Shown piece after piece: positions 3,165-63,470 of a DNA stretch of 64,000 nucleotides (position 1 is the stretch's first letter; every line of letters begins with the position of its first letter). The notes below the pieces were generated by a model. The model saw only the letters and a list, made by a program, of their open reading frames with translations, was not told where the DNA came from and ran no database searches. Both the position numbers and the translations under genes were made by a program. The DNA comes from a bacterium (GTDB lineage: Bacteria > Patescibacteriota > Microgenomatia > Daviesbacterales > UBA10151), in contig JAJYNN010000002.1 in NCBI GenBank assembly GCA_021786315.1, positions 334,997-398,996 on the forward strand. Direction: 5' to 3'.

Positions 3165-3224
3165 ATGACACCCCTGCTGTATCGTTTGACATTTGTCCCG
3201 TACTGTTAAAATAATTGATATACC

Positions 3225-5178: not shown

Positions 5179-6735
5179 GTGCTTGTTGTTTGGAAAAATA
5201 TCTTTATGGATATAACGGGAGGCAATTTAGGATTTAACGGTCACCATCAGGCAACAAAGGCTTTTACTTGTGATGAAGTTTTTTTAAAACATATCGATCC
5301 CCAAACCGGAGAGGTTGAAGTATCAAGTCCGGTAATAAAATTAAATGATTATTTATCCATTACGCCACCGGAGGATAGGCTCCGCTTATTAGGACTGGCA
5401 AATTCCCTAAAAGGAAGGAAGATCTCTTTTGTTAACGCCACCGCCGCGGGCGGGGGTGTTGCCATTATGCGCACCGCGCAAAGATTTTTACTGAAAGAAT
5501 TGGGGGTTGATGTCCGTTGGTTTGTTACTGAACCCAATGAGGAAGCTTTTAAGATTACTAAAGGTTGTTTCCATAACGTTTTTCAGGGAGTGGCGGATAA
5601 TTGGCTGACCGATGCGGATATGGAAATTTACCGGCAATGGACCGGCCATAATGCCCAAAGAATGGAAGCCGAGCTGGCAAAATCGGATATAGTGGTAATT
5701 GACGATCCGCAACCTTCAGGTTTGATTCCGCATATCAAAAAAATAAACCCGAACGTGAAGATTATTTTCCGCAACCATATTCATAGTTTGGGTAATCTAA
5801 TGGGCAAAAAAGGCACTGTCCAAAACCATTCCTGGCAATTTCTCTGGAAAAATGGAATCTCCCGGGCTGATTTATACGTTTATCACCCGGTGGAAGACTT
5901 TATACCGGCCAATGTGGCACCGGAAAAAACCGTGCTTATGCCTCCTTCGACAGATCCTTTAGACGGATTAAACAGGAATTTAACGGATGAAGAGATTCGC
6001 CGGGGGTTGGAATTTATCAACGAAAAGCTGGAGTTAAACGGCCATCAAAACCCTATTGACCTAGGCCGCCGTTACATTACCCAGATTGCCCGATTTGACC
6101 CCTCTAAAGGAATTCCTGACGTCCTGGAAGCTTACAGTTTATTTTATAAGAAAATGACGGAAAACGGTTTTACTAAAGCATCTATCCCCCAGTTGGTTAT
6201 AGCCGGCAACGGTTCAGTTGATGACCCGGACGGGATACCTGTTTTGGAAGACACGATGAAAAAACGGGAACATAGATATAAGGATATTGCTGATGATATT
6301 AAAGTGGTAAGAATTCCCCATAACGACCAGGCGCTTAATGCTTTACTTAGGGCAAGCTTCATTGTTTTACAGTTGTCTACCCGGGAAGGATTTGAATTTA
6401 AGGTGACCGAGGCAATCATGAAAGGCAAACCGGTTATCGCGTCAGAGGTGGGAGGCATTCCTCTTCAGATTATTCCTGGCGAGTCCGGTTATGTGGTCAA
6501 ACCGGGAGATACCCGGCAAGTGGCGGAACACCTGTTTTCTCTGGTCACTCAACCGGAAATGTATCGCCGTCTAAGTACAGGTGCTTTAAGACTTGCCTCC
6601 GCCAAAAATTACGAGTTTACAACTGTTCCCAATCTTATCAACTGGCTATGGCTGTTTAGGGAGCTTCTGGAAAATCCGGACTTTAAAGGCAACAGACAAA
6701 ATGTAAAGGACTTGGTTGACGGCGGCCGTTTATAA
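5179..6735 (+). CDS. GT4 glycosyltransferase, trehalose glycosyltransferring synthase (TreT)-like
   Basis: 'VNATAAGGGVA', 'RWFV', 'DDPQPSGLI', 'ARFDPSKGIPDVLEAY', 'REGFEFKVTEAIMKGKPVIASEVGGIPLQIIPGESGYVV' match the TreT/GT4 pattern from memory; true start may be an internal Met. Confidence 0.6.
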   Translation: MLVVWKNIFMDITGGNLGFNGHHQATKAFTCDEVFLKHIDPQTGEVEVSSPVIKLNDYLSITPPEDRLRLLGLANSLKGRKISFVNATAAGGGVAIMRTAQRFLLKELGVDVRWFVTEPNEEAFKITKGCFHNVFQGVADNWLTDADMEIYRQWTGHNAQRMEAELAKSDIVVIDDPQPSGLIPHIKKINPNVKIIFRNHIHSLGNLMGKKGTVQNHSWQFLWKNGISRADLYVYHPVEDFIPANVAPEKTVLMPPSTDPLDGLNRNLTDEEIRRGLEFINEKLELNGHQNPIDLGRRYITQIARFDPSKGIPDVLEAYSLFYKKMTENGFTKASIPQLVIAGNGSVDDPDGIPVLEDTMKKREHRYKDIADDIKVVRIPHNDQALNALLRASFIVLQLSTREGFEFKVTEAIMKGKPVIASEVGGIPLQIIPGESGYVVKPGDTRQVAEHLFSLVTQPEMYRRLSTGALRLASAKNYEFTTVPNLINWLWLFRELLENPDFKGNRQNVKDLVDGGRL

Positions 6736-6972: not shown

Positions 6973-7105
6973 CCCCCCAATTTAAATATTCCACAAGTCT
7001 TGAATAGGGTCAAGCCGGATACTACTTATCAGAGAAACTTAAAGGTGGAAAGTGGTGTGTGGTTAGATCTTGTCAACTTTTTAAAAAAGTGCGACAGTAA
7101 AGTTA

Positions 7106-8350
7106 ATGGTTTGGAAGAGGTTTTTAAGCTGGAAGATAATTCTTGTCCCCATTGGAATTTTTGCCGTTATTTTCGCGGTGAAGGCTGCAGGCCATGCTTT
7201 TGATCGCTACCGCTACTCAAAGGAAGTAGGTAATAAAACTATTTTTCAATATGGTGAGCTGCCTGCTTGCGGGGATAAAAAGGAGTTTTTTACGGTCTCA
7301 CCGGTCAAGGATGGTCTTTACAGCAACATTGTGCCTTTAGGAAATTTTGGCGCCACGGGTGGCCATGTTATTCCCACCAAACACATTTACTTTATTGCCA
7401 AGGACCCCGACCACCAGCCTCTGACCGATATTTATGCACCAGGGGATTTGCACATCACCACCATTGAGCAGTGGCATAATTTGACTAAAAATCTTACGGA
7501 ATACTTTGTTTATACTTCTCCTTGTCAGGACATAGAGGTTAATTTTTATCATTTTAATGAACTTAGCCCAAAACTTATGGAAGCTTTTAATAAAAAAACC
7601 AGTTGTGATTGGCAGCGTTCCGAACAAACAGGGAATACTTCTTATCAGCATTGCGGGAAAGTTCTCCATGGGGTGACGGTTGCGGCGGGGGAAGTTTTAG
7701 GCAAGGCTACCCCGGCTAACAAAGGCGGCATTAGACAATTTTTTGATTTTGAAATGTCCGACCACCGGACACAGGCTCTAGCCTTTGCCAACCCCAAGCG
7801 TTTTGAAGGCGGCTTTGATTTTAAACATATTGTTTGTCCCCTGGATTACTTTACTCCTGCTCTCAAGCAGAAGTTCTTTTCCCAAATAGCCGATTATTAT
7901 AACCCGAATCTAAAGAGGACTGCCCGGCCTTTATGTGGCGAATATATGCAGGATGTACCGGGAACAGCCCAGGGAGTCTGGTTTAAAAATAATTCCGATA
8001 CGGCTGATAACGGAGAAAATTCTGCCGTGACTTTGGCCCATCATAATGTTTTAACCCAAAAAGGAATTTTTTCTATCGGCACCCAAGCTATGGGCACAAT
8101 CGAAGCGGGGGAGTACCCGTTTGTTCCACAGCTTTCCGGCCTAATAAACCGTGATTTCAAGGATGTTACCGCTGACGGAAAAACTTATTGCTTTGAGCCT
8201 ACCGGTTTGACCGGCACCTACAACTATCCTTTTCGGATCATTTTACAGATGACCTCACCGACAAAGCTGAAGATTGAGGGCCAAAAGGTTCAGGGTTGCG
8301 GCTCTGGCCCCTGGAACTTTGACAATGGTGCCAGTGAGTTCGAAAGGTGA
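7106..8350 (+). CDS. hypothetical N-terminally anchored extracytoplasmic protein
   Basis: N-terminal TM helix then 390-aa soluble domain with several Cys; no known motif. Confidence 0.45.
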   Translation: MVWKRFLSWKIILVPIGIFAVIFAVKAAGHAFDRYRYSKEVGNKTIFQYGELPACGDKKEFFTVSPVKDGLYSNIVPLGNFGATGGHVIPTKHIYFIAKDPDHQPLTDIYAPGDLHITTIEQWHNLTKNLTEYFVYTSPCQDIEVNFYHFNELSPKLMEAFNKKTSCDWQRSEQTGNTSYQHCGKVLHGVTVAAGEVLGKATPANKGGIRQFFDFEMSDHRTQALAFANPKRFEGGFDFKHIVCPLDYFTPALKQKFFSQIADYYNPNLKRTARPLCGEYMQDVPGTAQGVWFKNNSDTADNGENSAVTLAHHNVLTQKGIFSIGTQAMGTIEAGEYPFVPQLSGLINRDFKDVTADGKTYCFEPTGLTGTYNYPFRIILQMTSPTKLKIEGQKVQGCGSGPWNFDNGASEFER

Positions 8351-10758
8351 CCATTTGGTGCTTTCGAGGATGTTAGCTTTTTTTGTAAATCTTTCATTAA
8401 CTCACTAATTTGCATCCAGAAAAATGCCCAAACCCAGGCAATGATAATCCAGATTAAGGGAACCTTGGCGGGCATCAAAAATCCGGTTAGGGCAAAAATG
8501 GTGGCAATGCCTTGGGTTAGGGAAGTGGCCCAAATCACTTCCTTGCTGGGCAAAAACTTCCACCATCTTTCTTTGGTATGGGCTACATAAATTAACATAT
8601 GGCCGGAAACTGTTAGTTTCAAAAAGTAAATCGTTTGGATAAGGTTCCAATTAAGGTGCAGCAAATTGTTCATAATAAAAAACAACAACAGGCTGTTTAG
8701 GATACCGACTGAGCCAAAAAGGGAGCTTAAGATAAAACGCTGGCGGACATTAATTTTTGCCGGGCGGGTGGCGATTTTGACCTTGTCAAAAGCCAAAGAG
8801 ATGATCGGGATATCGTTTAATAGGGCAATGATGATAATTTGTAAGGGGGTTAAGGGGTAAGTCCGGTAGAGGAGCCCCAAAATGGCAATGGTGACTATCA
8901 GCCGGTAGCTTTCGGAGATCCGGTAGAGGGAGTAGGTATAAAGCCTTTCAAAAATTTTCCGGCTTTCAAGTATGGCATCACGGATAACGCTGATGCCTTC
9001 CGAAAGCAGGACAATGTCGGCTGTGGCCTTCAAAGCTGATACGGCATTTTTGACGGCAATTCCCACACTGGCTGCCTTTAAGGCCGGTAAATCATTGATC
9101 CCGTCGCCGTTGGCGGCAACGGTAAAGAATTTTTTCGCCGCCTGCACCAGTTTTAATTTATCGTCCGGTAATATTTCGGCAAAGGCTCCTGTTTGGGCGT
9201 AAAATTCCGGTGGCAAATTATCCCAATTTAGCTTGTCCAGCTCCTCTTTGGTAACAATCTTCCCGTCGTCCAGCTCAAGCTGCAAAGCTACTTGGGAAGC
9301 GATAGCCCGGTTGTCACCGGTTAACATAGTGACACCAATCCCGCTCTTTTCCAAAAACTGGATAACCGACTTGGCATCCTCGCGCAAAGTGTCGGATAAG
9401 GCCAACAGCCCGACAATTTTCATCTTTTGTTCTTTTGCGGTATGGGAGATGGCTACAGCAATAGTCCGGTAACCGCTTTTGGCTAAGGTCTCCACTTCCC
9501 GGTTAAACTTTTCGCCGGTTTTTTTATCAAGGTCACACAACTTTTCAATAACTTGGGGAGCGCCGGAAGAGACAACCAGCTTTTCTTTTCCGGACTGGAT
9601 GGTGATGGTATTGCGTTTTCTTTCGGAATCGGCAGGGATAAAATCGATTTTGGAAAATACCGGCGGTGAAATCTGCAACGCCCGGACTTTTTCTAAAACA
9701 GCCTGGTTAATAGAGTTGGTCTCATCCGACGCTGCAGGGATGGCGGCATACTTTAAAACGTCGTTGTGGGTAAACCCGTCGTAAGCGTAGATATCAGCGA
9801 TGGTGATCTTATTTTGGGTGAGGGTTCCGGTTTTATCGGTTAACAGCAAGTTAACATTGGATAAATCTTCCAGGGCGGAAAGCCGGCGGACCACCACGTC
9901 CTTTTTGGCCAGGTTTAACACCCCAAACTCAATGATTAAAGTCATGACTGTGGGCAGGCTGATGGGGATGCCGGCAATGACCAAACTTAAATCCAGGGTT
10001 AAAAGCTCCAGCAGGGAAACTTTTTGGAGGATAAAGATGCCGCTTAAAATTACCACTGCAATAGCGCTCAGGATGGTCAGGAATTTAGAAATGCTTAAAA
10101 TATCTTTTTCCAGCAGGCTTTCCCGCCTCACTCTCTCCACGGAAAAAATGGTTTTGCCAAAGTTGGTATTTTTGCCGGTGGCGGTAATTTTAATGGTGGC
10201 AAGACCGGTGATTAAAAAGGATCCGGAAAAAACCTGGTCATGCAACACTTTATCTTTAGGGAGGGACTCCCCGGTTAAGGCAGCTTCATTTATGGTAACG
10301 TGGCTGGCTTCCAAAATTTCCCCGTCTGCCGGAACGACCTCACCGGAAGAAAGCTGGATAATATCGCCCGGAACAATCAGCCGGGAGTCGATTGAATGCC
10401 AGGCGTTATCCCGGAAAACCTTAATTTTTTGGGCCAGGTGTTCGTTTAATTTCTTAATGGCATTGTCGGCCTTGTTTTCCTGCCATAAAGAGATACCAAT
10501 ATTTAAAAGCAGTAAAAAGAGGATAAAGAAAAAATCAAAAGTTTTTTGGGTGGCCAAAGATAAAATGGCAGCAGCAAGAAGCATTAAGGAAATAGGGGAA
10601 ACTGTTTTTTGTATGAGCTTGCTTAAGATAGAAGTCTGCTTTTCCGGAATCTCGTTTGGACCGCTAGTCTGAAGCTGCTTTTCTGCCTCTTCCGATGTTA
10701 GGCCGGTAAACTTCATACTATACAGTATATACCGGTTTGAGGCAGTTGATTCAAGCAC
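8290..10758 (-). CDS. P-type ATPase, type III (plasma-membrane H+/Mg2+-ATPase-like)
   Basis: 'DKTGTLT' phosphorylation motif, 'GDGINDLPALKAASVGIAV', TM4 'IPISLPTV' (IIIA-like, no CPC); alternative start at 10716 (MKFTG...); 3' end overlaps the convergent gene by 61 nt. Confidence 0.9.
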   Translation of the reverse strand: MLESTASNRYILYSMKFTGLTSEEAEKQLQTSGPNEIPEKQTSILSKLIQKTVSPISLMLLAAAILSLATQKTFDFFFILFLLLLNIGISLWQENKADNAIKKLNEHLAQKIKVFRDNAWHSIDSRLIVPGDIIQLSSGEVVPADGEILEASHVTINEAALTGESLPKDKVLHDQVFSGSFLITGLATIKITATGKNTNFGKTIFSVERVRRESLLEKDILSISKFLTILSAIAVVILSGIFILQKVSLLELLTLDLSLVIAGIPISLPTVMTLIIEFGVLNLAKKDVVVRRLSALEDLSNVNLLLTDKTGTLTQNKITIADIYAYDGFTHNDVLKYAAIPAASDETNSINQAVLEKVRALQISPPVFSKIDFIPADSERKRNTITIQSGKEKLVVSSGAPQVIEKLCDLDKKTGEKFNREVETLAKSGYRTIAVAISHTAKEQKMKIVGLLALSDTLREDAKSVIQFLEKSGIGVTMLTGDNRAIASQVALQLELDDGKIVTKEELDKLNWDNLPPEFYAQTGAFAEILPDDKLKLVQAAKKFFTVAANGDGINDLPALKAASVGIAVKNAVSALKATADIVLLSEGISVIRDAILESRKIFERLYTYSLYRISESYRLIVTIAILGLLYRTYPLTPLQIIIIALLNDIPIISLAFDKVKIATRPAKINVRQRFILSSLFGSVGILNSLLLFFIMNNLLHLNWNLIQTIYFLKLTVSGHMLIYVAHTKERWWKFLPSKEVIWATSLTQGIATIFALTGFLMPAKVPLIWIIIAWVWAFFWMQISELMKDLQKKLTSSKAPNGHLSNSLAPLSKFQGPEPQP

Positions 10759-12491: not shown

Positions 12492-13253
12492 ATGTTTAAT
12501 AGGTATAGAGAATTAAGAGAAAAGAGAGATAATCTTAACCAGATTTTAAAGCGGGAAATTGGCTTAGATTTTACATCCACTCTAATTCTTATATTTTTCG
12601 TTTTTGGAACAGTAGTTATATTTGCAGGATATTTTGTTGGTCTAATTAAAACGAATGATTTTATTTCAGCTTTCATACTTTGGTTTACAGCGGTAGTAAT
12701 CTTGGACTATACGAAAGAAACACATGATTTGAAGGCGAACTCGGACAGGACTTTGAAGGAAATAAGAAAGCAGAATGAACATATTGAAAACCAGCTCAGG
12801 ATTGAACAAGAACCTTATTTAGTTATAAAGGATCATATTGTTATCGCAGGTAGCGACCCAGGTCGTCTACATATCATCATGTTTAAAAATATAGGAAGAG
12901 GTGCGGCTTTAAATGTGCTTGCAACTACAGACCCCGAAGGAAAAATCTCGATAATCGAAGCATCAAATCCGCATTCAGTGGACTTAGGTCCAGGAGAGGT
13001 GAATAACGGTTGGGCAATCGACGAAAACCAGGTTATTAAAGGTTTAAAAGAACAGGGTGTAAGCATTGAAGATTCTGTTGTCCTAGGGATTCCTGATGAG
13101 AGTTCCTTAAGAGAAAGTGAAAAATTCAAAGCTGACTTTTATATATTTCTTTGGTATCAGGACCAACTAGGTAAGAAGTACAAAACTGTGACAAAAATCC
13201 GCCATTCAGGAGCGTTCTTTAAGGTGATGGAGAACAGGCGAGAAAATATTTAA
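12492..13253 (+). CDS. hypothetical membrane protein (2 TM helices plus soluble C-terminal domain)
   Basis: ORF with two hydrophobic helices; no known motif. Confidence 0.4.
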   Translation: MFNRYRELREKRDNLNQILKREIGLDFTSTLILIFFVFGTVVIFAGYFVGLIKTNDFISAFILWFTAVVILDYTKETHDLKANSDRTLKEIRKQNEHIENQLRIEQEPYLVIKDHIVIAGSDPGRLHIIMFKNIGRGAALNVLATTDPEGKISIIEASNPHSVDLGPGEVNNGWAIDENQVIKGLKEQGVSIEDSVVLGIPDESSLRESEKFKADFYIFLWYQDQLGKKYKTVTKIRHSGAFFKVMENRRENI

Positions 13254-13337
13254 AAGCTGGAATTGTTGGGTTGGGGGAATTTGCAGGATTCTTACTTGAA
13301 CCAGAAGCTTAATTGGAATATAATAGTCCCATAAACG

Positions 13338-13371
13338 CCTCACCTAGTGCGAAAGCCCGGTGAGGTTTTTT
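13338..13371 (+). terminator. rho-independent terminator
   Basis: stem CCTCACC/GGTGAGG plus TTTTTT. Confidence 0.5.
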
Positions 13372-13387
13372 GTGGCATAATATACTC

Positions 13388-13972
13388 ATGTCAAATTGCA
13401 TTTTATTTATTGACGGTGAGAACTTTCTTCATAAAGTAGAAGAAGTTTTAAGTGGAACGAGAAAATCTGGAGTAAAGGAACAGTTAGGGAATATTAATCT
13501 CGATCAACTATTTGAGCTTCCATTAAAAGGTCTAAAAGTTAGCAGAAAGGTATTTTATGCTGCTAAACTACACTCCCATCCGGAAACTCAGAAGAAATCT
13601 GAAGAGCTGATAAAACTTCAGAGAAAACTCCGGAATAATCTTGTAAAACAGGGTTTTGAGTTTGTTATTGCCGGGAATGTTCGAGCACAGAAAGTCGGGC
13701 AGAGAGTAGTTTTTAGGGAGAAAGGTGTGGATGTGAGGATCGCAGTTGATATGGTGTCGTTTGCTTGCGATAAAAAATTGGATACTGTTATTCTTTGTAG
13801 CTCAGATTCAGATTTGCAGCCTGCCATATCTGAGGTTAAAAGAAGAAACGCAGAAGTGATCTACTTAGGTTTTGAGAATAATCCTAACAAGGGTTTGGCT
13901 TATACAACAGACAGAACGATTCTGCTTAGAAATTCGGAGATTATTGAAGCGTGCGGAGGTAAAAAGAAATGA
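13388..13972 (+). CDS. NYN-domain (LabA-like) ribonuclease-family protein
   Basis: 'ILFIDGENF', 'RIAVDMVSFAC..DTVILCSSDSDLQP'; the ORF track starts at a TTG (13370) inside the terminator T-tract, so the first ATG (13388) is preferred. Confidence 0.65.
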   Translation: MSNCILFIDGENFLHKVEEVLSGTRKSGVKEQLGNINLDQLFELPLKGLKVSRKVFYAAKLHSHPETQKKSEELIKLQRKLRNNLVKQGFEFVIAGNVRAQKVGQRVVFREKGVDVRIAVDMVSFACDKKLDTVILCSSDSDLQPAISEVKRRNAEVIYLGFENNPNKGLAYTTDRTILLRNSEIIEACGGKKK

Positions 13973-15066
13973 GCTTAAAAGTAGGAATAGTTGGGTTGCC
14001 GAATGTAGGGAAGTCCACTTTATTTAATGCCCTTTTGAAAAAGAGGGTGGCTTTGTCTGCCAATTATCCTTTTGCTACCATTGAACCCAATGTGGGGGTG
14101 GTGGCGGTGCCGGATAACCGTTTGAATGAGTTGGCAGAACTTGTCAAAGACGAGGAAAAGATGGAAAACTTGCCGCCTTTGGTTCCGGCGGTGGTGGAGT
14201 TTGTGGACATTGCCGGGTTGGTCAAAGGCGCGTCCGGGGGAGCAGGTTTAGGCAACCAATTTTTGTCCCATATCCGGGAAGTGGACGCGATTGTCCACGT
14301 TGTCCGGGATTTTGAGAATGGGGATATAGTTCGCGAGGGTTCCGTTTCCCCTGATGAGGATAAATTAACCATTGAAACTGAGCTGGCTTTGGCGGATTTA
14401 CAGGTTATTGAAAAGTTGGTAGCTGCCCAGGAAAAAGAGGTCCGGGGGGCCAAGGACCCTTTGGAAGGGTTAAAGCTGGATATCCTAAAAAAGATCAAGG
14501 AAAACTTAGAGGCCGGAAAAGTGTTGGGCCATTATGAGATTGGAGATGAACGCCTAAAGCATTGGTTTGCCGGATTGCCGCTTTTAACCACAAAGCCAAT
14601 GTTGTATGTGCACAATGTCTCCGAGGAAGATTTAAGATTTAAGAATGAAGAATTAAGAATTGAGGAAAATGTGGTGGTAATTTCCGCCAAAGTGGAGGAG
14701 GAGCTGGCCGAGTATTCGGAAGAGGAGAGAAAAGAGTATCTGAAGGAGTTGGGGATAGAGGAAACAGGTTTGGAGAGGTTAATTAAAAAGGCCTATGAAG
14801 TTTTGGGGCTGATCTCATTTCTCACCGCCGGTAAAAAAGAAGTCCGGGCCTGGACCGTTAAAAAAGGCAGCAAGGCCCCGCAAGCTGCGGGGGTAATCCA
14901 TACCGATTTTGAAAAAGGTTTTATCCGGGCCCAAGTTATCCCTTACGAAAAGTTAATTGAAGCCGGATCCTACGCTGTGGCCAAACAAAAAGGGCTAATC
15001 AGGACTGAAGGGAAGGATTACATTATGCAGGATGGGGATGTTGTTGAATTTTTGGTAAGCAGTTAA
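13969..15066 (+). CDS. ychF: ribosome-binding ATPase YchF
   Basis: 'VGIVGLPNVGKSTLFNALL' G1 motif, YchF-type TGS C-terminus; 365 aa. Confidence 0.95.
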   Translation: MSLKVGIVGLPNVGKSTLFNALLKKRVALSANYPFATIEPNVGVVAVPDNRLNELAELVKDEEKMENLPPLVPAVVEFVDIAGLVKGASGGAGLGNQFLSHIREVDAIVHVVRDFENGDIVREGSVSPDEDKLTIETELALADLQVIEKLVAAQEKEVRGAKDPLEGLKLDILKKIKENLEAGKVLGHYEIGDERLKHWFAGLPLLTTKPMLYVHNVSEEDLRFKNEELRIEENVVVISAKVEEELAEYSEEERKEYLKELGIEETGLERLIKKAYEVLGLISFLTAGKKEVRAWTVKKGSKAPQAAGVIHTDFEKGFIRAQVIPYEKLIEAGSYAVAKQKGLIRTEGKDYIMQDGDVVEFLVSS

Positions 15067-21895: not shown

Positions 21896-22255
21896 ATGCT
21901 AGACAATGAAGAACTCATGCACAGAATTCACCAGGTCGGACAGAAAATTAGTGATGCAGCGACTTTAGAAGAGCTTTATTATTTTCAGGATGGCAATGCC
22001 CCGAAGGAGTGGATTAATTTAATGACTGCAGGTTTGTCCCAAACAGAGAAGGCTTTAATCAAGACTAATCTGGGCGTTATACGGAAAGCATTCCGGGTTG
22101 ATTTACCTTTAGGGTGGTTTCGGGAATTGGGCGTGGAGGGGTTGATGGATTTGCGGATTAACCGGCTGACACTGGCGGGGGCCAGGTTTTTTACCCGCAG
22201 TTTTCAAAAAGGAGAGTGGCCTGTTGAAGAAAAGGAACGACTAACTGACCGTTAA
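21896..22255 (+). CDS. hypothetical protein
   Basis: 119 aa; no motif. Confidence 0.35.
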   Translation: MLDNEELMHRIHQVGQKISDAATLEELYYFQDGNAPKEWINLMTAGLSQTEKALIKTNLGVIRKAFRVDLPLGWFRELGVEGLMDLRINRLTLAGARFFTRSFQKGEWPVEEKERLTDR

Positions 22256-22927
22256 GATCCTTTGTAAGTGAGCCAGATCTTTTTTGACTTCCACCGAGGC
22301 ATTGGGAAAATATTTTTGGGCCTCGAAGGCTGCCAGTTCTCCGTGGGTGTAATCAATTTCCCCTAGGATTAGTTTTGGTTTTAAACCTCTTTCGTTGATT
22401 TGGGTAAACAATTTTCTGTAAAGCTCAAAGCCGTCTTCACCGCCATCCAAAGCCACATGTGGTTCGAAGTCCTTAACGGAGGAATCCAGGTAATTGATCC
22501 TTTCTGTGGGGATGTAGGGAAGGTTGGTAACAATAATCAGATTTTCAGAATGTCGGAGTGTCGGAATATCAGATAGGAGGTTGCTGTGAATAAAAGTGAT
22601 TTTGTTTTCTACTCCGTGGAATTTGGCATTTTGCCTGGCCACATCCAAAGCTTTTTCGGAAACATCGGTGGCAATAACCTTAACATTGGGGGCATTTTTA
22701 GCCAGGGAAATGGCAATATTTCCTGTCCCAGTTCCAATATCCAATACAGTGACCTGATTTTGGGATTTGGCAAAATCCAAGACAGCGTCCACCAAAAGTT
22801 CCGTTTCCGGGCGGGGGATTAAGGCATCAGGAGTAACCTTGAATCTTAATTTATAGAACTCAACAAAACCTTTTATGTATTGATCAGGTTTAGAATTTTT
22901 ATCTGGCATATAATTTTCAATTAACAA
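22241..22927 (-). CDS. prmC: release-factor glutamine N5-methyltransferase (PrmC/HemK family), short form
   Basis: SAM motif 'VLDIGTGTGNIAISLA', 'TNLPYIP' (NPPY-like); immediately downstream of prfA. Confidence 0.75.
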   Translation of the reverse strand: MLIENYMPDKNSKPDQYIKGFVEFYKLRFKVTPDALIPRPETELLVDAVLDFAKSQNQVTVLDIGTGTGNIAISLAKNAPNVKVIATDVSEKALDVARQNAKFHGVENKITFIHSNLLSDIPTLRHSENLIIVTNLPYIPTERINYLDSSVKDFEPHVALDGGEDGFELYRKLFTQINERGLKPKLILGEIDYTHGELAAFEAQKYFPNASVEVKKDLAHLQRILTVS

Positions 22928-23025: not shown

Positions 23026-23964
23026 TTATTTTTCTTGGTCTGCCTCCTGCAAGGCCTTAAAAACCGGTTCCATGCCGCCTTCCATAATAGTTTCCAGGTT
23101 GTACCAGGACTTGCCGATCCGGTGGTCCGTTAGCCGATTTTGGGGAAAATTATAAGTCCTGATTTTTTCGCTGCGGTCACCCATGCCGACCATACTCTTT
23201 CTGGCATCAGTAATCGAGCCAAACCTCTCCCGTTCCTCAATTTCCCAAAGTTTGGCCCGAAGGAGGGCCATGGCGTTTTCCCGGTTTTGCAACTGTGACC
23301 GTTCTGTCTGGCAGGTTACCACAATACCTGTAGGGATATGTTTTAACCTCACTGCAGTATTAACTTTATTGACATTTTGGCCTCCGGCCCCGCCAGACCG
23401 AAAAGCCTCAAACTCCACATCAGCCGGGTTGATATAGACCTCAGCTTCCGGGATTTGGGGAAGCACGGCTACGGTCGCAGTAGAAGTATGGACCCTTCCC
23501 TGGGATTCGGTTTCCGGAACCCTTTGCACCCGGTGGACACCGGATTCATACCTTAAGGCGCTAAAAGCGCCCTTGCCGGTAAACTTCATGGTGATCTCCT
23601 TAATCTGGCCGATTTTGCCCTCAGAACGGTCCAATTCCTCCATTTTCCAGCCCTGGTTGGCCGCATAGCGGGTGTACATCCGGAGTAAATCCCCGGCAAA
23701 AAGCCCGGCTTCATCACCGCCGGCAGCTGATCTTATTTCCATGATGGCAATATTGGGATTGATGTCAGAGTCGTCTGATGAATCTGATTCATCAGACGTA
23801 TCCATCGAGGTTGCAGCTGATTCCTGTAACTCTATCTTTTGCTGTTCCAGATCAGCAATTTCTGCTTTGGCCAGTTCGGCCAAGGTCGGGTCAGCAAGCA
23901 TCCCTTTTGCCTCCTCGATCTTTTTATCAATTTCGGCAATTTGTTGCTCAAGATAATCGTTCAT
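23026..23964 (-). CDS. prfA: peptide chain release factor 1, with acidic Ser/Asp-rich insertion
   Basis: GGQ motif '[27 protein letters not shown]', RF1-type '[17 protein letters not shown]' (PET in place of PAT/PVT). Confidence 0.9.
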
Positions 23965-27869: not shown

Positions 27870-28616
27870 ATGTCCTCAAACATCGACTACGCAATTATTC
27901 TTGCCGGCGGAAAGGGAGAGAGACTTCGGCCTCATACTGACAATAAGCCCAAACCAATGGTGGAGGTGGGAGGCAAACCAATCATTGTTTACCAATTGGA
28001 AAGACTTCAAAGTGTGGGGGTTAAGGAGGTAGTTATTGCTTGTAGCTATAAATGGGAGGCGATTAAGGAATATTTAGGAAACGGGGAGAAACTGGGGATG
28101 AAAATTAGTTATTCGGTGGAAACTGAGCCTTTAGGACGGGGCGGGGGTATCAAAAAAGCGATGCAATTTTTGCCGGACAATTGGGAGGATGCTTTAGTTT
28201 TAAACGGGGATATTCTTTCAAATTCCAGCTTAGAGGATCTAGTAGCCCAGCATTACGATAAAAAGGCCTTAGTTACCCTCACTGTTGTTCCCCTAAAGAG
28301 CCCTTACGGAATTGTTGAATTTAATGAAAATAACGAGGTTCTGGGTTTTCGGGAGAAACCCATTTTGCCGCACTGGATCAACGCCGGAATGTATGTCTTT
28401 TCAAAAGAGATAGAACCGCTTTTACCGGAGGTGGGGGACCATGAGACGGAAACATTCCCTAAGCTGCCGAAAGAAAAGTTCCTGGTTTTTCAAAGCGAGG
28501 ATTATTGGAGGGGAGTGGATACAGTTAAAGACTTAACCGAGGCTGAAAAAGAGGTTGTGGAGATTTTTGGCCAGCCTTCAGTTTCTGGTGGTATTGGTTT
28601 TACTCTTACTGCCTGA
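27870..28616 (+). CDS. sugar-phosphate nucleotidyltransferase (NTP_transferase family, e.g. mannose-1-P guanylyl- / glucose-1-P thymidylyltransferase-like)
   Basis: 'AIILAGGKGERLRPHTDNKPKPMVEVGGKPII' signature. Confidence 0.75.
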   Translation: MSSNIDYAIILAGGKGERLRPHTDNKPKPMVEVGGKPIIVYQLERLQSVGVKEVVIACSYKWEAIKEYLGNGEKLGMKISYSVETEPLGRGGGIKKAMQFLPDNWEDALVLNGDILSNSSLEDLVAQHYDKKALVTLTVVPLKSPYGIVEFNENNEVLGFREKPILPHWINAGMYVFSKEIEPLLPEVGDHETETFPKLPKEKFLVFQSEDYWRGVDTVKDLTEAEKEVVEIFGQPSVSGGIGFTLTA

Positions 28617-29396
28617 AACTTTTGGAGTGGCGGAAGGTGTAGCAACTTTGGCTGATGGTGTTGCCGTATTGGGTTTAAAGTTTGAGGTATAGGGCAGGAT
28701 ATAGATAAATTCAGCGTCAATTACCCCGCTTTTGGGGCTGACCCCGGCCACAATAATCGGTTTATTTTGTTTGACATCTGCAAATGAGGCTGTCTGGCTT
28801 TTGGCGGTTTTAAAGAGTGTCCCGGTGCCGACATTGATGGTGATACTCTGGTTTTCTTTGGTGGTTATCGTGAGAGTGCTGTCTTCAAGCGAGGTAATTT
28901 CCCCAAACACCGTTTTTCTTTCTTCCTCTTTAGGGGCGGTAAATTTAATGATTTTCTTGGCTGTTAAAACCGAGGTTTCGTCAACATCACCTAAAGCCAC
29001 GATATAGTCATCAACTACCAGGTCTTTAGAAGATTTACTCTTACCCGTTGATTTAACCAAGTTGACGTATTGGGTGTAGTCGTTGATATTGATTAGCCTT
29101 GTCCCTTTATCGGTGGCAATAGTAATTGCATCTTTGGAGACGGATTTAATAACCCCCACATAGGCCTTGTTTTGCAGTTCCTTAGTGACCTCGGATTTTA
29201 ACTTGGCTGCCCGGGAGGCAACCTCGTCCTGCAAAGCCTTAAGCTTGGCCTTTAAGTCCGGGCTGGAGGTGGCGATAGAGGTAGGTTCGGCCGCCCTGAT
29301 GGGCAGAATTAAGAATATAGAATTAAGAATTAAGAATGAAAGTAAAATCGCTATAAAATTCATTATTCTAAATTCAGAATTCCTAATTTTTTTCAT
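28578..29396 (-). CDS. hypothetical secreted protein
   Basis: N-terminal signal/anchor; Lys/Thr-rich; 5' end built on AAGAATT repeats. Confidence 0.4.
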   Translation of the reverse strand: MKKIRNSEFRIMNFIAILLSFLILNSIFLILPIRAAEPTSIATSSPDLKAKLKALQDEVASRAAKLKSEVTKELQNKAYVGVIKSVSKDAITIATDKGTRLININDYTQYVNLVKSTGKSKSSKDLVVDDYIVALGDVDETSVLTAKKIIKFTAPKEEERKTVFGEITSLEDSTLTITTKENQSITINVGTGTLFKTAKSQTASFADVKQNKPIIVAGVSPKSGVIDAEFIYILPYTSNFKPNTATPSAKVATPSATPKVSGSKSKTNTTRN

Positions 29397-29863: not shown

Positions 29864-29945
29864 GTATCGGATAGTCGGAATATCGGCGTATCAGCATGTC
29901 GGAATATCTGACACACTGAAACTCTGATATACTGACACTCTGAAC
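29864..29945. repeat. degenerate period-8 tandem array (about 10 octamers; first half ..TCGGA, second half ..CTGA: imperfect palindrome)
   Basis: GTATCGGA TAGTCGGA ATATCGGC GTATCAGC ATGTCGGA ATATCTGA CACACTGA AACTCTGA TATACTGA CACTCTGA directly upstream of the MBL-fold gene. Confidence 0.55.
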
Positions 29946-29946
29946 T

Positions 29947-42973: not shown

Positions 42974-43366
42974 ATGGATAATTCAAAAATTCGCATTTTA
43001 ATTGTTGAAGATGACCAGTTCCTCCGGGATTTTTACCAGGAGCTTTTAACTTCTGAGGGTTATGCAGTGGATGTAGCGGCGGATGGGGAAGTGGCTTTAA
43101 CAAAAATGCGCCAGGGCGGCTGGAACCTGGTTTTGTTGGATATCATGCTTCCCAAAAAAGACGGCTTAAATATTTTAAGGGACCTGAAAGTCCAGGGCCC
43201 GGCTGCTCCCAATGGCCCGATTGTAATGCTGACTAACTTAGGGAATGACACTATTATCAACCAGGCCTTTTCCATGGGGGCTACCGGATATTTAATTAAA
43301 TCTGCCTTAAATCCGGATGAAGTTTTGACTGAGATTCACAGCTTCCTCCAAAAAGCCAATGGTTAA
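42974..43366 (+). CDS. response-regulator receiver domain protein (stand-alone)
   Basis: 'ILIVEDDQF', 'NLVLLDIMLPKKDGL'; paralog of 35629..36057. Confidence 0.75.
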   Translation: MDNSKIRILIVEDDQFLRDFYQELLTSEGYAVDVAADGEVALTKMRQGGWNLVLLDIMLPKKDGLNILRDLKVQGPAAPNGPIVMLTNLGNDTIINQAFSMGATGYLIKSALNPDEVLTEIHSFLQKANG

Positions 43367-44132
43367 AGTCATCTTTGAAGCCCCTTCCTTCCTGGTTTTA
43401 GATAAACCCCCGGGACTTGTTACCACTTCCTCTGAAACCCAGAAAGAGCCTTCCCTGGAGGATATTTTAAAGTCGGAATTTAGGATTAATGTTGATCGCG
43501 GAGGCATAGTTCACCGGTTAGACAAGGATACATCCGGGCTTTTGGTGGTGGCCAAAACCCAAGGTGCTTTGGAAAACCTGCAGGCCCAATTTAAAAACCG
43601 GGAAGTCAAAAAACAATATCTGGCTTTGGTTCACGGGGCCATTACTGAAGCGGGAAAAGTGGAGGTACCCATTGGCAGGAATCCCGGAGACCGGGAAAAA
43701 TTTGTGGCGGACCCAAATGTTCCTAATGCCCGGGAGGCGGTGACACTGTATGAACCGGTGCAAAATTTTCAATTTTCAATTTTCAATTTTCAATCAATCT
43801 TCAATGATTTAAATAAAATTCAAACAAGAAAGTTGGAAAGATCTCAGTATGGAATTTTTACGCTGCTCCGTTGCTATCCTCAAACTGGACGGACGCACCA
43901 AATTAGGGTACATTTAAAATACATCGGATTTCCCATCGTGGGGGACGGGAAATACGGTGGCCGGAAAACGGGCAGGTTAGACCACAGGTGGTGTCCCAGG
44001 CAGTTTCTACACGCTGCCAAGTTAGAGTTTAATGACCCCCAGACTGGAGAAAGATTGAGCTTTGAAAGTGAGCTGCCCGAGGATCTGCAGCAAGTTTTGA
44101 AGCTCCTGCAAGGTGACGCCTTGCACGAGTAA
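43359..44132 (+). CDS. RluA-family pseudouridine synthase carrying an in-frame repeat-derived insertion
   Basis: 'GIVHRLDKDTSGLLVVAKT', 'TGRTHQIRVHL'; insertion 'QNFQFSIFNFQSIFND' encoded by (CAATTTT)x4. Confidence 0.8.
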   Translation: MVKVIFEAPSFLVLDKPPGLVTTSSETQKEPSLEDILKSEFRINVDRGGIVHRLDKDTSGLLVVAKTQGALENLQAQFKNREVKKQYLALVHGAITEAGKVEVPIGRNPGDREKFVADPNVPNAREAVTLYEPVQNFQFSIFNFQSIFNDLNKIQTRKLERSQYGIFTLLRCYPQTGRTHQIRVHLKYIGFPIVGDGKYGGRKTGRLDHRWCPRQFLHAAKLEFNDPQTGERLSFESELPEDLQQVLKLLQGDALHE

Positions 44133-51152: not shown

Positions 51153-51968
51153 ATGAAGGCTTTATCAGTCAAATTAAAAGTTTTTGGGGTTTCGGCAGAA
51201 TTAACCAAACGCCAAAAGATTATTGTTGCCTCGGGTATCCTTTCTCTTGGGTTATTGTCCACTCAATTGGTGCCGTTTTATCTGGCTTACCGGTTTATTG
51301 CGGGCTTGACGGTTGCCGCTTATCTGCTTTCCCTTTGGGCTTTGTGGGAGGGAATGGACAGGAGAAAGGCGGTAATTTTGATGATCTTGCCGACTTTGTT
51401 TACCCTGGCCGTTGCCAGCTATTATTTTTTGTTGCCGGTCCGCTGGTTAACCAGAATTCCGGTGGCGACACTTTTCGGGCTGACTTTTTATACATTGCTT
51501 TTGTCCCAAAATGTCTTTAATGTGGCTTCCACCAGGACCATTCCTTTGTACAGGGTGGCCTCAACCACAGTTTTTATTTTAACTTTAATTACTTCATTTC
51601 TATTGTTTAATGTCATGTTTTCTTTGAACCTGTTTTTCCTCTGGAACGGGGTAGCGGTCTTTATCTTAACTTTTCCGCTGATTTTACAGGTTCTTTGGAC
51701 AATTGATATGGAAGCTGTTTCGAGCGTAATTTTAATGTATAGTTTGAGCCTATCTTTGGTAGTGGCGGAGATTGGGGTGGCCCTGTCTTTTTGGCCGCTT
51801 TCTAAGTCTATGGCTTCCTTAATGCTATCCACGGCCATTTATACAACCTTGGGAATTGGATCTGATGCCTTAAAGGAACGGCTGAGTAGAGGAGTGGTCT
51901 GGGAATATTTAGGCTGGGGAGCGGTGATCTTCCTTGTAGCTTTACTCGGCACTTCCTGGACGGGGTAG
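51153..51968 (+). CDS. hypothetical polytopic membrane protein
   Basis: 7-8 TM helices. Confidence 0.45.
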   Translation: MKALSVKLKVFGVSAELTKRQKIIVASGILSLGLLSTQLVPFYLAYRFIAGLTVAAYLLSLWALWEGMDRRKAVILMILPTLFTLAVASYYFLLPVRWLTRIPVATLFGLTFYTLLLSQNVFNVASTRTIPLYRVASTTVFILTLITSFLLFNVMFSLNLFFLWNGVAVFILTFPLILQVLWTIDMEAVSSVILMYSLSLSLVVAEIGVALSFWPLSKSMASLMLSTAIYTTLGIGSDALKERLSRGVVWEYLGWGAVIFLVALLGTSWTG

Positions 51969-51974
51969 ACCCGA

Positions 51975-53299
51975 GTATCGGAATATCGGAGTATCAGAAT
52001 GTCAAAAGATTCCGACACTCCGAAACGCAGATATTCTGACACGCTGAATAAAAAGGGGAGAATAGTGTGTTGGAAAGCCCCAAATGAAGATGCAAAAAGT
52101 TGTTTGCCTTTATAGCATCTTCTCGCAGTACGCTTCGCGTACAATTGGAAGTATTCACCATAAAAAAGTGAATACTTCATACGATAGAGGAGGTAGAGAG
52201 GCGAAAACTATGGGACATTGTTTGATATAGTTGATATAGTTTGATATAGTTGCTAGCCTCGAATGTGGATAACTATAAGACATATCAGAGTATCAGAATA
52301 TCGGAACATCAGTGTGTCGGGAGACCAGAACATCAGATGATCAGAGTGTAGAGAACGAGAGAATACACTACTCTGGGGAGGCTACGACAAGATATATTTT
52401 TACCATTCTTACAAGACGACTGCTAACTTCTGTTTACACGCGTGAAAAATTAGGGATCTCCTTTGAAAGAGAGGAGAGCTCCCGTTACTTTATAAAAATA
52501 CGCACAAATTAGAACACGAAGCTGTGAGTTTGCCTCTACTTCAAGATAGATCCAGCCTCACACCCCGCTAAACAGAAGCCCTACTCAATTACTATGTCGC
52601 ACAATGTATCTTATGCGACGTCATGGATGCCTGTAACCAGGGGGAGACCCACCGGTCGCCAAAGCGACCGAATTTATAATTTTCAATTAACAATTTTAAA
52701 TTCTTTATTTTGTACCTATTTTAAATACTTTCCTATCGAAAAATTTTTCTTAATTCTTAACTCTTAATTCATAATTCTCGTTTTTTAGGTTTAGGGCTTT
52801 GGGACAAGCTAATCTGGGATGATGAAGTGTACATCCTCCCCCCGTTTCGACCGTTTTAGGGGCCTTCTAGAGCCTCGTGCGTAAATAGCCAGAGTGCCAG
52901 AGTTTCGGCGTATCAGAGTGTCGGAAAAGACATTAATAAACCCAGGTCTTATGCAAAGCGTTTAATCTTTTGGATAAAATTCGATATTCTTCTAATAAAT
53001 TGTTGGCTTCTACAGAAAAATTTTCATCAATCATTGATAAGGCTCTTAGATGAGTAATTATTTCGTCACTGGAACCAATAGCTATCAATAGATATCTTCT
53101 AAATTCCTTTTGTGAATTACGCTTAGCGAAGCCTTCAGCCTGTGGTAGCTTATTAGCTAATTCGTATAACTCCTTTAGTAACCTTAGTGATTCTTGGTAA
53201 ACCACTAAGTCTGTTACATCCTTAATTTCCATCAATTTTATCTTATTCACGAGTCCTTTTCCGGTTAACCGACATTCCGATACTCCGATATTCTGATAC
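51975..53299. mobile_element. cassette bounded by inverted 29-bp octamer-array ends (27/29 identity), containing a repeat-rich non-coding kb and a four-helix-bundle gene
   Basis: left 51975-52003 GTATCGGAATATCGGAGTATCAGAATGTC; right 53271-53299 is its reverse complement with 2 mismatches. Confidence 0.35.
52933..53232 (-). CDS. four-helix-bundle protein (23S rRNA IVS protein family), free-standing
   Basis: 'MEIKDVTDLVVYQESLRLLKELYELANKLPQAEGFAKRNSQKEFRRYLLIAIGSSDEIITHL'; the ORF track's 5' extension to 53556 is considered spurious. Confidence 0.7.
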   Translation of the reverse strand: MEIKDVTDLVVYQESLRLLKELYELANKLPQAEGFAKRNSQKEFRRYLLIAIGSSDEIITHLRALSMIDENFSVEANNLLEEYRILSKRLNALHKTWVY

Positions 53300-53368
53300 G
53301 TCGCACAATATTTATCCTCTTTCGAGGCTATTCGACTACCTTTTAATCTATGATAGTATGAAATAGAG

Positions 53369-60920: not shown

Positions 60921-63470
60921 TTAATTACTGTCCTCTTTTTCCTTCTCAACCACGGAGGCGGCGACAACCCTTTCGCCATCCCTCACTCTCATCAAGATAA
61001 CACCTTGGGTTTGCCGTTGTAAAGTCGGAACATCTTTGACCATTATCTTAATAAGCTGGCCTTTGTTAGAGGTCATTACCAGTGTACTTCCGTCGGAGCC
61101 GACTATTTGGGCGGTAACGATTGACCCGGTTTTAGAAGTGACTTGGGCAGCTTTGACTCCCATGCCGCCTCTTCCCTGCCTGCTCCAATTGGAGACTAAT
61201 GTCCTTTTGCCTAAGCCGTTGGCCATCACCGCTAAAAGTTGGTCAGATTTGGGGTCGCCGATCTTATTTAAGGAAACTACCTCATCCCCCTTGGAAAGTT
61301 TAATGCCTCTTACCCCCGAAGTATCTCGGTGGGTTGGTCGGACATCTTTTTCGGTGAACCTGATTGATTGTCCTTGCTCTGAAACGATGATTAAATCATC
61401 ATCACCGCTTGTGGGGCAGACCCAGCACAAAGTATCCCCTTTATCCAGGTTGATTGAGATCAGGCCGTTTTTGCGGATCGAAGCATACTCTTCGATGGCG
61501 GTTTTCTTGACGTTGCCTTCCTTGGTGCACATAAAGAGGTATTTGGCGGTTTCCTTTTTCTGCCTGGTGGTCAAAACTGCGGTAATCTTTTCGCCTTGAT
61601 CGATATTAATCAGGTTGACGATGGCTTGGCCTTTGGCAATCCGGGAGGCTTCGGGGATTTCCCAAACTTTGAGCTGGAAAACCCGGCCCCGGTCGGTGAA
61701 AAAGAGGATATTGTCTAAAGTCATGGTGTAAAAGATATGGCTGACTGCATCTTCTTCCTTGGTGGTAATGCCGGAAACACCCTTGCCCCCGCGGTTTTGG
61801 ACCCTAAAGGTTGAAGGAGCTTGTCTTTTGATATAGCCCCCCTCAGTAATGGTGACAATGGTATTCTCATCAGCAATTAAGTCCTCTTCGTTAAACTCCC
61901 CTACTTTCTGCTTGTAGACCCGGGTTTTTCTTTCGTCCCCGTATCTTTCTTTAATTTTTACCAGCTCATCCTTGATAACTTTCAGTATCTTTTCCGGATG
62001 GGCCAATAAGTCCTCAAGGTAAGCAATAGTTTCCCGGACCATCTTTAACTCATCCTCAATTTTTTGCCTTTCCAGGGCAGCCAGACGTCTAAGTTGCATA
62101 TCCAAGATAGCCAGGGATTGAATCTCGCTTAACTTGAATTTAGCCATCAGGTTAGTTTTCGCCTCATCAGCATCCTTACTCTTTTTAATGGTTTCGATCA
62201 CCGCATCGATATTGTCAACGGCGATTTTTAAGCCTTCCAAAATATGTTCCCGGGCCCGGGCTTCTTTAAGCTCAAATTCGGAGCGTCTTCGAATAACGAC
62301 CTGACGGTGGGAGATAAATTCCTCCAGGATGTGCTTTAAGGTGAGAAGTTTTGGTACCCCGTCCACCAAAGCGACCATATTAACATTAAAGACCGATTGC
62401 ATGGCGGTATGCTTATACAAATTATTAAGCAGGGATTGGGGTTTGGCGTCGCGCTTGAGCTCAATGACGATCCGCATTCCCCGTCTGTCGGATTCATCGC
62501 GTAAATCGGCAATTCCTTCTATCTTTTTCTCCTTGTGCAGCTCGGCAATCCGGGTAATTAAGTTAGCTTTATTAACTTGATACGGAATTTCAGTGACGAT
62601 GATATCGAACCGCCCGCTTTTGGTTTCCTCGATCTCGGCCTTGGCCCGCATGACGATTCTCCCCTTGCCGGTAGCGTAAGCGTTCATGATTTCTGATTGG
62701 TCGTAAATAGAACCACCGGTTGGGAAATCCGGGCCTTTGACGAATTGGACAAGTTCTTCGACGGTAGCATCAGAGCTAAATTTTTCAGAGGAATCAGTTT
62801 TTTCTGATTCACTGGTTAACAGATTTTCTGATAGATCCGATTTTCTGGTCTTCTGGTTTTCTGATTTGCTGGGGTGGTCAATCATGTAAATCAACGCACT
62901 GGTTAATTCCCCCAGGTTGTGGGTCGGGATTTGGGTGGCCATGCCGACGGCAATACCGGCGGCGCCGTTAAGAAGCAGGTTAGGGATGACTGAAGGTAAA
63001 AGTGTTGGTTCCTGGGTTGTTCCGGAATAATTATCGATGAAATCAACAGTATCCTTGTGGATATCCCGCAGGAGTTCATCAGCGATGGCGGAAAGCCTGG
63101 CTTCGGTATAACGCATAGCAGCCGGCGGATCGCCGTCTACTGAACCGAAGTTTCCCTGGCCGTCGATTAACATGTAACGCATGGAAAAGTCCTGGGCCAT
63201 CCGGACCATGGCTTCATAAACCGGAACATCGCCGTGGGGGTGGAAATTTTTTAAAACCTCTCCCACAACTGCGGCTGATTTTTGGTAGCGGGCGGTATGG
63301 TGCAGGCCGGATTGCTGCATGGCGTAGATGATTCTCCGCTGCACCGGTTTTAAGCCGTCGCGGACATCAGGAAGGGCCCGGGAAACAATAACCGACATGG
63401 CGTAGTCCAAATAGGACTTCTTCATTTCTTCTACAATTGGGGCTGGTTCTATCTTACCTATATTACTCAT
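60921..63470 (-). CDS. gyrA: DNA gyrase subunit A, with ~40-aa Ser/Glu/Lys-rich insertion
   Basis: '[25 protein letters not shown]', active-site Tyr region, C-terminal beta-pinwheel repeats. Confidence 0.95.

Follow-up and report, generated by a model that had tools for sequence, protein, structure and literature searches.

The palindromic elements of Rickettsia (Rickettsia palindromic elements, RPEs) are dispersed repeats inserted in-frame in proteins, with which the fold and function of the host are apparently compatible (PMC10969869). The repetitive extragenic palindromes (REPs) that carry GTAG or CGTC tags also occur within coding regions, including those of genes for DNA synthesis and repair, and these intragenic REPs often come as dimers or groups that encode 20-30 amino acids (Di Nocera et al. 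2013, PMC3733652). Simple-sequence repeats and low-complexity insertions lie within coding regions of AT-rich genomes, for example that of Plasmodium (PMC11260460). The case considered here lies in a 64-kb window (the whole stretch of DNA that was analyzed, scanned on both strands) from a bacterium of Candidatus Daviesbacteria, within the Microgenomates of the candidate phyla radiation (CPR, Patescibacteria), as judged by the nearest named relatives of its GyrA. Within its gyrA gene, octamers akin to those of arrays lying between genes run through an insertion in the protein.

The proteins of CPR bacteria abound in unexplained lineage-specific insertions, which complicate annotation, alignment, and structure prediction. 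I propose that the gyrA stretch is probably a coding-embedded copy of a dispersed octamer family specific to this genome, tolerated in a permissive loop, in the manner of RPEs and intragenic REPs.

The octamer array in gyrA

The gyrA gene (60921..63470, minus strand) is an intact open reading frame of 849 amino acids, recognizable by Pfam families PF00521 and PF03989 and by its match to solved GyrA chains (E = 1e-79). A protein 100% identical to it (P0001) is encoded on three contigs (from NCBI, Logan, and ENA), the longest of 942,606 nt, and its presence in independent assemblies speaks against an artefact of assembly. When the protein is aligned with GyrA of B. subtilis (4ddq), query residues 1-100 fall on residues 103-202 of the chain and query residues 132-250 on residues 201-319, leaving a gap of 31-34 amino acids. 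Because the flanks align contiguously, the gap marks a pure insertion, which lies between two helices. It occupies the post-IDHP loop, with the winged-helix region on one side and the tower region on the other, where 34 lineage-specific codons (62769..62870, minus strand; SKSENQK...EKFSSD) separate the end of the IDHP helix from ATVEEL.

Most of these codons are made of octamers. The reverse complement of 62781-62872 reads AAATCAGA AAACCAGA AGACCAGA AAATCGGA tc TATCAGA AAATCTGT TAACCAGT GAATCAGA, letters and coordinates that agree with the original prediction, and the array proper (62803..62867, minus strand, 65 bases) consists of eight units with a single 9-nt step, in-frame in gyrA. The identity of the stretch with itself is 0.58, 0.54, and 0.51 at lags of 8, 16, and 24 nt, against about 0.25-0.30 at other lags, including 6, 9, and 12. 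A repeat of codons or of peptide would peak at multiples of three, so the repeat is an 8-nt unit of DNA that is read in all frames. The signal at lag 8 has P = 0.0008 when codons are permuted and P = 0.0009 when they are resampled synonymously according to the genome's own codon usage.

Membership in a family was judged by a weight matrix of eight columns, trained on 37 units taken from intergenic arrays only (consensus GTATCAGA). The scores of units were summed at 8-nt steps, with steps of 7 or 9 nt allowed at a penalty. The arrays that supplied the training units score 39.5-65.3 bits; the gyrA array, absent from the training set, scores 39.6 bits, and the maximum over the rest of the window, array loci aside, is 15.7 bits. 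The score of gyrA was never reached when its codons were permuted 5,000 times (maximum 19.2) or when its peptide was re-coded synonymously 5,000 times (maximum 33.9; P < 2e-4 for both). Since neither null attains it, the signal resides in the DNA and not in the peptide, and the claim that the GyrA insertion is built, at the level of DNA, of the genome's octamer family is supported. Seven loci in the window belong to that family: five between genes, one within gyrA, and one within prmC. Its consensus is RTRTCRGA, and at the variable positions of the unit purine is replaced only by purine.

What such an array encodes follows from its period. Because eight cannot be divided by three, the reading frame shifts from each unit to the next until all three have been used, and the result is an aperiodic peptide rich in Ser, Glu, Lys, Asn, and Gln. 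For example, (ATCAGAAA)x3 yields IRKSENQK. The insertion is also enriched in two rare Ser codons, TCA and TCG. In the forward orientation the octamers are free of stop codons in every frame, which makes an array easy to tolerate in coding DNA. As for the peptide, it is probably not needed for any function and would be neutral to the enzyme.

Other repeats in the window

The second coding copy is found in prmC (22241-22927, minus strand), a gene identified by Pfam methyltransferase hits. Five units with perfect cores, spaced at exactly 8 nt, lie in-frame at 22534-22573 (plus strand) and encode LSDIPTLRHSENLI directly before the NLPY motif. This array was not in the training set either; it scores 46.0 bits, a value reached by none of 5,000 permutations and none of 5,000 re-codings (P < 2e-4). 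Where one of the units would put TGA in frame, CGA stands in its place. The prmC genes of two relatives, L090 and L091, contain no octamer array. A PrmC homologue that is 76% identical (P0242) has in its loop SDAPTHRPADPL, whose back-translation is an array but for two single mismatches.

The original prediction placed octamer expansions in two essential genes, gyrA and prfA, and in the second it was mistaken. The bases quoted from prfA (23761..23812, minus strand) are indeed present, and their cores are spaced at 9, 9, and 9 nt, the spacing of Ser-Asp codons. Identity at lag 8 is 0.09, compared with 0.51 at lag 9, and the chain score of 11.0 bits lies within the null (P = 0.09 and 0.37). These bases encode an acidic Ser/Asp/Glu linker of RF1 that is nearly constant in length (a segment of 40-47 amino acids) in 70 of 70 Daviesbacteria RF1s (the rows inspected of 120 aligned); L090 and L091 encode it with different codons. 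It exceeds that of solved RF1s by about 11 residues. The linker is ancestral, conserved in composition, and no member of the octamer family; a nearly constant length kept with unrelated codons is the very result that the original prediction named as its own refutation. RF1 itself (23026-23964) has 312 amino acids here and in relatives, with an N-terminus about 45-50 amino acids shorter than in solved RF1s, and the Pfam PCRF match begins at profile position 43.

The example of prfA brings up the dullest of explanations, that a disordered loop rich in Ser, Glu, and Lys will by chance or by its low complexity contain words like TCAGA. This is the correct reading of prfA, where Ser-Asp codons give TCNGA every 9 nt and a background score. 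Applied to gyrA and prmC, it must contend with scores that went unmatched in 5,000 trials of each null and with a lag of 8 that exceeds lags of 9 and 6. For those two genes it was ruled out by the permutation, re-coding, and lag tests, and I give it almost no weight.

Coding DNA of the window holds repeats of a second period as well. A perfect (AATTTTC)x4.4 heptamer array (43764-43794; 100% matches by Tandem Repeats Finder) sits in-frame within an insertion of about 29 amino acids in an RluA-like synthase (43359-44132). Five AAGAWTT heptamers (14627-14661) lie in-frame in ychF (13969-15066), and in the open reading frame 28578-29396 a heptamer array (29305-29337) encodes a hydrophobic N-terminal segment. 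Members of the heptamer family (AATTTTC, AAGAATT, AGAATTA) are common at gene boundaries.

Most of the octamer loci are found outside of genes. Spacings between TC[AG]GA cores in the window peak at 8, 16, 24, and 32 nt, and although non-coding DNA makes up 12% of the window, five of the seven octamer loci fall in it, a distribution that fits purifying selection against most coding copies. The first of the intergenic arrays (29864-29946) is palindromic, a forward half followed by an inverted half, and lies downstream of a -10-like box and ahead of the start codon (ATG at 29947) of a gene for a metallo-beta-lactamase (MBL)-fold protein. Its RNA would fold with -37.8 kcal/mol (z = -6.4). The orthologous site in L090 (4557-4614) is without the array, the ATG coming 6 nt past the box, and since the window holds an 85-nt array where L090 holds none, it follows that an array comes or goes as one block. 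The mRNA of the MBL-fold gene in L090 would be nearly leaderless. A second palindromic array (51967-52050), directly 3' of a DUF5656 gene, has folding z scores of -4.1 (plus strand) and -5.9 (minus strand). A unidirectional array of eight units (52282-52345, plus strand) gives the highest chain score, 65.3 bits, and no hairpin (z = +1.1). The remaining two, detected by the matrix chain, flank a gene of the 23S_rRNA_IVP family (52933-53232, minus strand): one just downstream of it (52886-52925, plus strand) and one upstream in inverted orientation (53260-53299, minus strand). In a relative, L084, a gene of the same family also stands between inverted octamer arrays.

This disposition of arrays raises the possibility that they are functional, serving as a multi-site platform for a factor that binds DNA or RNA at RTRTCRGA every 8 nt, and that the copies in gyrA and prmC were selected for regulation. 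Variation that only exchanges purine for purine is like that of a degenerate recognition site. The arrays adjoin the starts or ends of genes, one of them between a -10-like box and an ATG, two form very stable hairpins, and inverted arrays surround the same 23S_rRNA_IVP-family gene in two genomes. It is difficult to reconcile such a role with the opposite orientations of the coding copies relative to mRNA (TCRGA in gyrA and TCYGA in prmC) or with close relatives whose same genes have no arrays; moreover, no candidate binding protein was identified, and no Rfam family matches. I regard selection for regulation as improbable.

The array-rich region has features of its own. Window positions 51969-53300 are syntenic with 18140-19640 of L084: RuvC, DUF5656, about 900 nt of non-coding DNA, and the 23S_rRNA_IVP gene (Avd-like, PF05635), and in the ~900-nt part blocks are kept across four lineages. 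An Rfam scan of the locus gave no credible match. Motifs of note (52593-52625, 52222-52250, 52266-52274, and 52653-52670) are a conserved dif-like 11-6-11 palindrome (ATGTCGCACAA TGTATC TTATGCGACGT), a DnaA-box-like TGTGGATAA, a promoter-like TTGATA-17-TATAGT within a conserved (TGATATAGT)x3, and a terminator-like hairpin. At about 52 kb a plateau in GC skew sets in. Such a region might serve in recombination, mark a terminus, or encode an RNA some 400 nt long.

Beyond the window, octamer arrays occur also in the relatives L084, L085, and L130. Scans of metagenome and viral contigs with ATCRGANNATCRGANNATCRGA mostly returned unrelated perfect 8-nt microsatellites, at any GC content, and so are uninformative on distribution; family-like arrays appeared in them only in L116 and L130, which share their sample of origin with L084. 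The order of units is weakly shared between arrays (P = 0.007-0.3, not surviving multiple testing).

The GyrA loop and the origin of its array

A search of contigs on GyrA motifs, in which the matches listed include L003 and L005 (Daviesbacteria/Microgenomates), the close relatives L001, L002, and L007, and more distant loci from Dojkabacteria and Shapirobacteria, supplied a sample of loop lengths. The segment from IPxHN to GPDFPT has 27 or 31 amino acids in 58 of the 66 GyrAs from other bacteria among the matches listed. It has 53-109 in eight listed loci: two from Daviesbacteria, one each from Dojkabacteria, Shapirobacteria, and Microgenomates, two titled Pseudomonadales, and one from Chloroflexi. 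Among 120 Daviesbacteria GyrAs (75-88% identity) the flanks are kept and an insertion is present in every one, of about 2-50 amino acids and of unrelated sequences. In many of these relatives the loop starts with S-K-P-E (AGY AAA CCR GAA). An AlphaFold2 model, built on a shallow alignment of 56 sequences, is poor overall, with a mean predicted local distance difference test (pLDDT) of 65 and with residues 205-227 below 50, as is much of the N-terminus. This loop is old, hypervariable, and probably permissive, and the octamer array is its current content in some lineages, not its cause. Hence the original prediction went too far in holding that repeats created the insertion, the site being hypervariable in all 120 relatives. 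The part of it that survives is that the genome's own short or dispersed repeats lie in-frame in housekeeping genes: gyrA, prmC, the RluA-like gene, and ychF in the window, and GyrA, MurC, and MurD in relatives. One GyrA homologue (P0013, 1280 amino acids) contains intein domains (PF14528, PF14890), and gyrB of L089 (804-4043, 1079 amino acids) has an Intein_splicing domain.

Octamers are distributed patchily among these loops. Arrays are found in gyrA of L084 (28.7 bits), L082 (27.3), and L083 (28.0), with a fainter trace in L081; there are none in gyrA or nearby in L086 and L087. The intergenic arrays of L084 match its gyrA copy in their unit variants (AGAxCxGA). The first four units of the gyrA array are common to the window and L084 (about 31 of 35 nt), and so the array is older than the split between the two. 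At one point the window's array is longer than those of L084 and L085, by 27 nt or about 3.4 units.

How did the array get there? One answer is replication slippage in place, the expansion mechanism of the original prediction: a seed in the loop, for example AAACCAGA (Lys-Pro-Glu), would have been amplified locally, and the intergenic arrays would have arisen independently in the same fashion. The widespread S-K-P-E start means that a seed existed. Two adjacent gyrA units, ACCAGAAG and ACCAGAAA, are nearly identical, the 27 nt by which the window exceeds L084 and L085 lie at a single point, the order of units is weakly conserved between arrays, and the perfect heptamers of the RluA-like gene show that recent tandem expansion does take place in coding DNA. 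Yet most neighboring gyrA units differ at 1-3 of 8 positions, and Tandem Repeats Finder, scoring the array at 35, counts no more than 2.6 copies. The prediction that insertions should vary in length by 8 or 24 bp was not borne out, since 27 nt is a multiple of neither and the lengths in the 120 relatives show no quantization by 8 amino acids. Furthermore, the closest relative (88% identity) is without an array, and slippage leaves unexplained why the gyrA array should fit a matrix drawn from unrelated intergenic loci. As a mechanism of expansion slippage is unproven, and as the origin of the array I find it unlikely, if the strongest of the alternatives to the copy proposed here.

Slippage also offers no explanation for what other lineages hold at the same site of GyrA, which is a repeat that is not tandem at all. 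The loops of L088 and L089 hold a palindrome, CGTCATTGCGA...GCAATC / GATTGC...TCGCAATGACG, whose peptide signature is VIA(S/I)...KQS...IAS...RND. This palindrome, tagged with CGTC, is found in L089 within 22 kb in-frame in GyrA, in a MurC-like ligase, and in MurD, as well as between genes (copies at 6340-6470, 9060-9190, 10595-10744, and 19680-19760 of L089 and at 10595-10705 of L088). Its peptide signature turns up again in two PrmC homologues (P0252 and P0347), in the loop that holds the window's octamer array. A search of the window for the palindrome gave matches at chance level, and the lineages with the palindrome in the GyrA loop have no octamer arrays nearby. With octamers in some lineages and the palindrome in L088 and L089, the GyrA loop follows each genome's own repeat family, behavior that has been described for RPEs (PMC10969869) and intragenic REPs (PMC3733652). 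Such families turn over fast between close genomes, to judge by a further palindromic repeat, TCGAACNCCCGANGTTCGA, that is present in L318 in three intergenic copies (5017, 5739, and 5784) and in none of the window, L084, and L090. Just downstream of gyrA in five relatives there is a gene for a Y1_Tnp transposase (IS200/RAYT-like, PF01797), in L082 at 2981-3634, L083 at 7064-7741, L087 at 12752-13399, L088 at 13195-13869, and L089 at 12836-13489.

A number of observations count against the proposal that the gyrA stretch is a copy of a dispersed family. The copy is degenerate, its units having A at position 2 where the intergenic units have T. Its cores are five exact, plus CCAGA twice, TCTGT, and CCAGT. 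By strict chaining of TCNGA cores (threshold 3.4), the intergenic and prmC arrays are recovered and gyrA is missed: its count by hand tally, 2.8 of 5, only equals the maximum of shuffled sequences, 2.8. The miss comes from the CCAGA variants and the 1-nt shift in phase, which is why a matrix chain that admits 7- and 9-nt steps was adopted. The array is direct and forms no hairpin (z = -2.0, with a local stem of just 6-7 bp), and so the copy lacks the palindromy that defines RPEs and REPs. A tblastn search with a Y1 query found no Y1 transposase in the window, and neither element ends nor target-site duplications were found. L318, which by GyrA is the closest relative at 88% identity, lacks an array both in gyrA and in its vicinity, and a rough neighbor-joining tree mixes lineages with arrays among those without. 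That tree, made from GyrA with the loop removed, is star-like and does not separate one gain and several losses from several gains. Finally, the survey of the family covered 64 kb of this genome.

Other observations concern the manner of arrival. The prmC loop is of normal length, with no net insertion relative to HemK (4dzr), and the peptide of its array is still alignable to the non-array loop of a relative. The ychF heptamers likewise occupy a loop of normal length with no net insertion. These normal lengths and the alignable peptide are easier to square with overwriting, or with evolution in place, than with a simple insertion. Perhaps, then, arrays are copied into variable loops by gene conversion or by template switching at microhomologies, with no net insertion needed. 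The best example would be prmC, whose loop is colinear with that of L090 (LSDIPTLRHSEN versus LSDIEPLIHSTN, about 60% nucleotide identity by manual count) and yet has five perfect cores. Nonetheless, those two loops are separated by no more substitutions than unconstrained sites would be expected to show, no donor array sharing the order of units was found (the tests of order being weak), and both the gyrA array and the 85-nt intergenic block at 29864-29946 are net insertions. Overwriting is thus a doubtful account, less probable in my judgment than slippage though ahead of a regulatory role.

The proposal of a tolerated copy can be put as a sequence of steps. Octamer array DNA would arise or land anywhere in the genome, a multi-unit array being copied or inserted and units being later gained or lost. 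Selection would remove copies from most coding DNA, so that in-frame copies persist only in loops that would accept any hydrophilic filler. The loop of GyrA after IDHP may be such a place, its insertion hypervariable throughout Daviesbacteria and other CPR lineages. Local gain and loss of units probably also occurs.

A broader and more tentative suggestion, one that I hold to be possible but somewhat less likely than its negation, is that captured copies of whatever dispersed repeats a genome carries account for many lineage-specific insertions in the housekeeping proteins of Daviesbacteria, and perhaps across the CPR, and that permissive loops are recolonized repeatedly and independently by different families. 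The loops in question may be those of GyrA after IDHP, of PrmC before NPPY, and the sites in MurC and MurD, and the families may be octamers, heptamers, and palindromes of the CGTC type. If this is true, then invasion by repeats, rather than gradual divergence, would be the main source of new peptide segments in these reduced genomes. Segments derived from repeats could be masked in phylogenomics or put to use as fast-evolving markers of strains.

Known systems and the octamer array

In-frame insertion of REPs, RPEs, and miniature inverted-repeat transposable elements is already established, and the array in gyrA represents no new principle. What it may add is an origin, checkable at the level of DNA, for some of the insertions in CPR proteins: the genome's own repeats of short period, read in-frame in tolerant loops. 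The searchable literature yielded no description of in-frame repeats in CPR genes, and the array would extend the phenomenon seen in Rickettsia to an unrelated radiation of reduced genomes, and with a new type of repeat, one whose period of 8 nt forces the use of all three frames.

Slippage is the usual generator of coding simple-sequence repeats, and a repeat unit not divisible by three normally leads to frameshift switching. The octamer arrays resemble the coding repeats of contingency loci and the insertions of Plasmodium in that short tandem units or filler lie inside housekeeping open reading frames, and the perfect (AATTTTC)x4.4 of the RluA-like gene fits that type well. The gyrA array differs from contingency loci in being degenerate, fixed in-frame, and within an essential gene, and in matching an intergenic family instead of repeating a codon. 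It has neither the nearly identical units of a coding microsatellite nor length steps of whole units.

Intragenic REPs come closer. They too are short dispersed repeats inside the coding regions of known proteins, and the CGTCATTGCGA...TCGCAATGACG element in GyrA, MurC, and MurD of relatives resembles that class. The octamer arrays depart from it in having no GTAG or CGTC tag, no single stem-loop as their unit, and no RAYT-type transposase in the window.

RPEs have a length of about 100-150 bp, are palindromic, and encode a conserved peptide. The octamer family is an array of 8-nt units, not palindromic in gyrA, with no conserved peptide and a frame that rotates at each unit, and its host is a CPR bacterium. 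What the gyrA array shares with RPEs and REPs is multiple intergenic copies of its family and extra sequence carried in-frame, and not palindromy. In RPEs and octamers alike, one family of repeats lies between genes and also in-frame in unrelated housekeeping genes, and the host protein remains intact.

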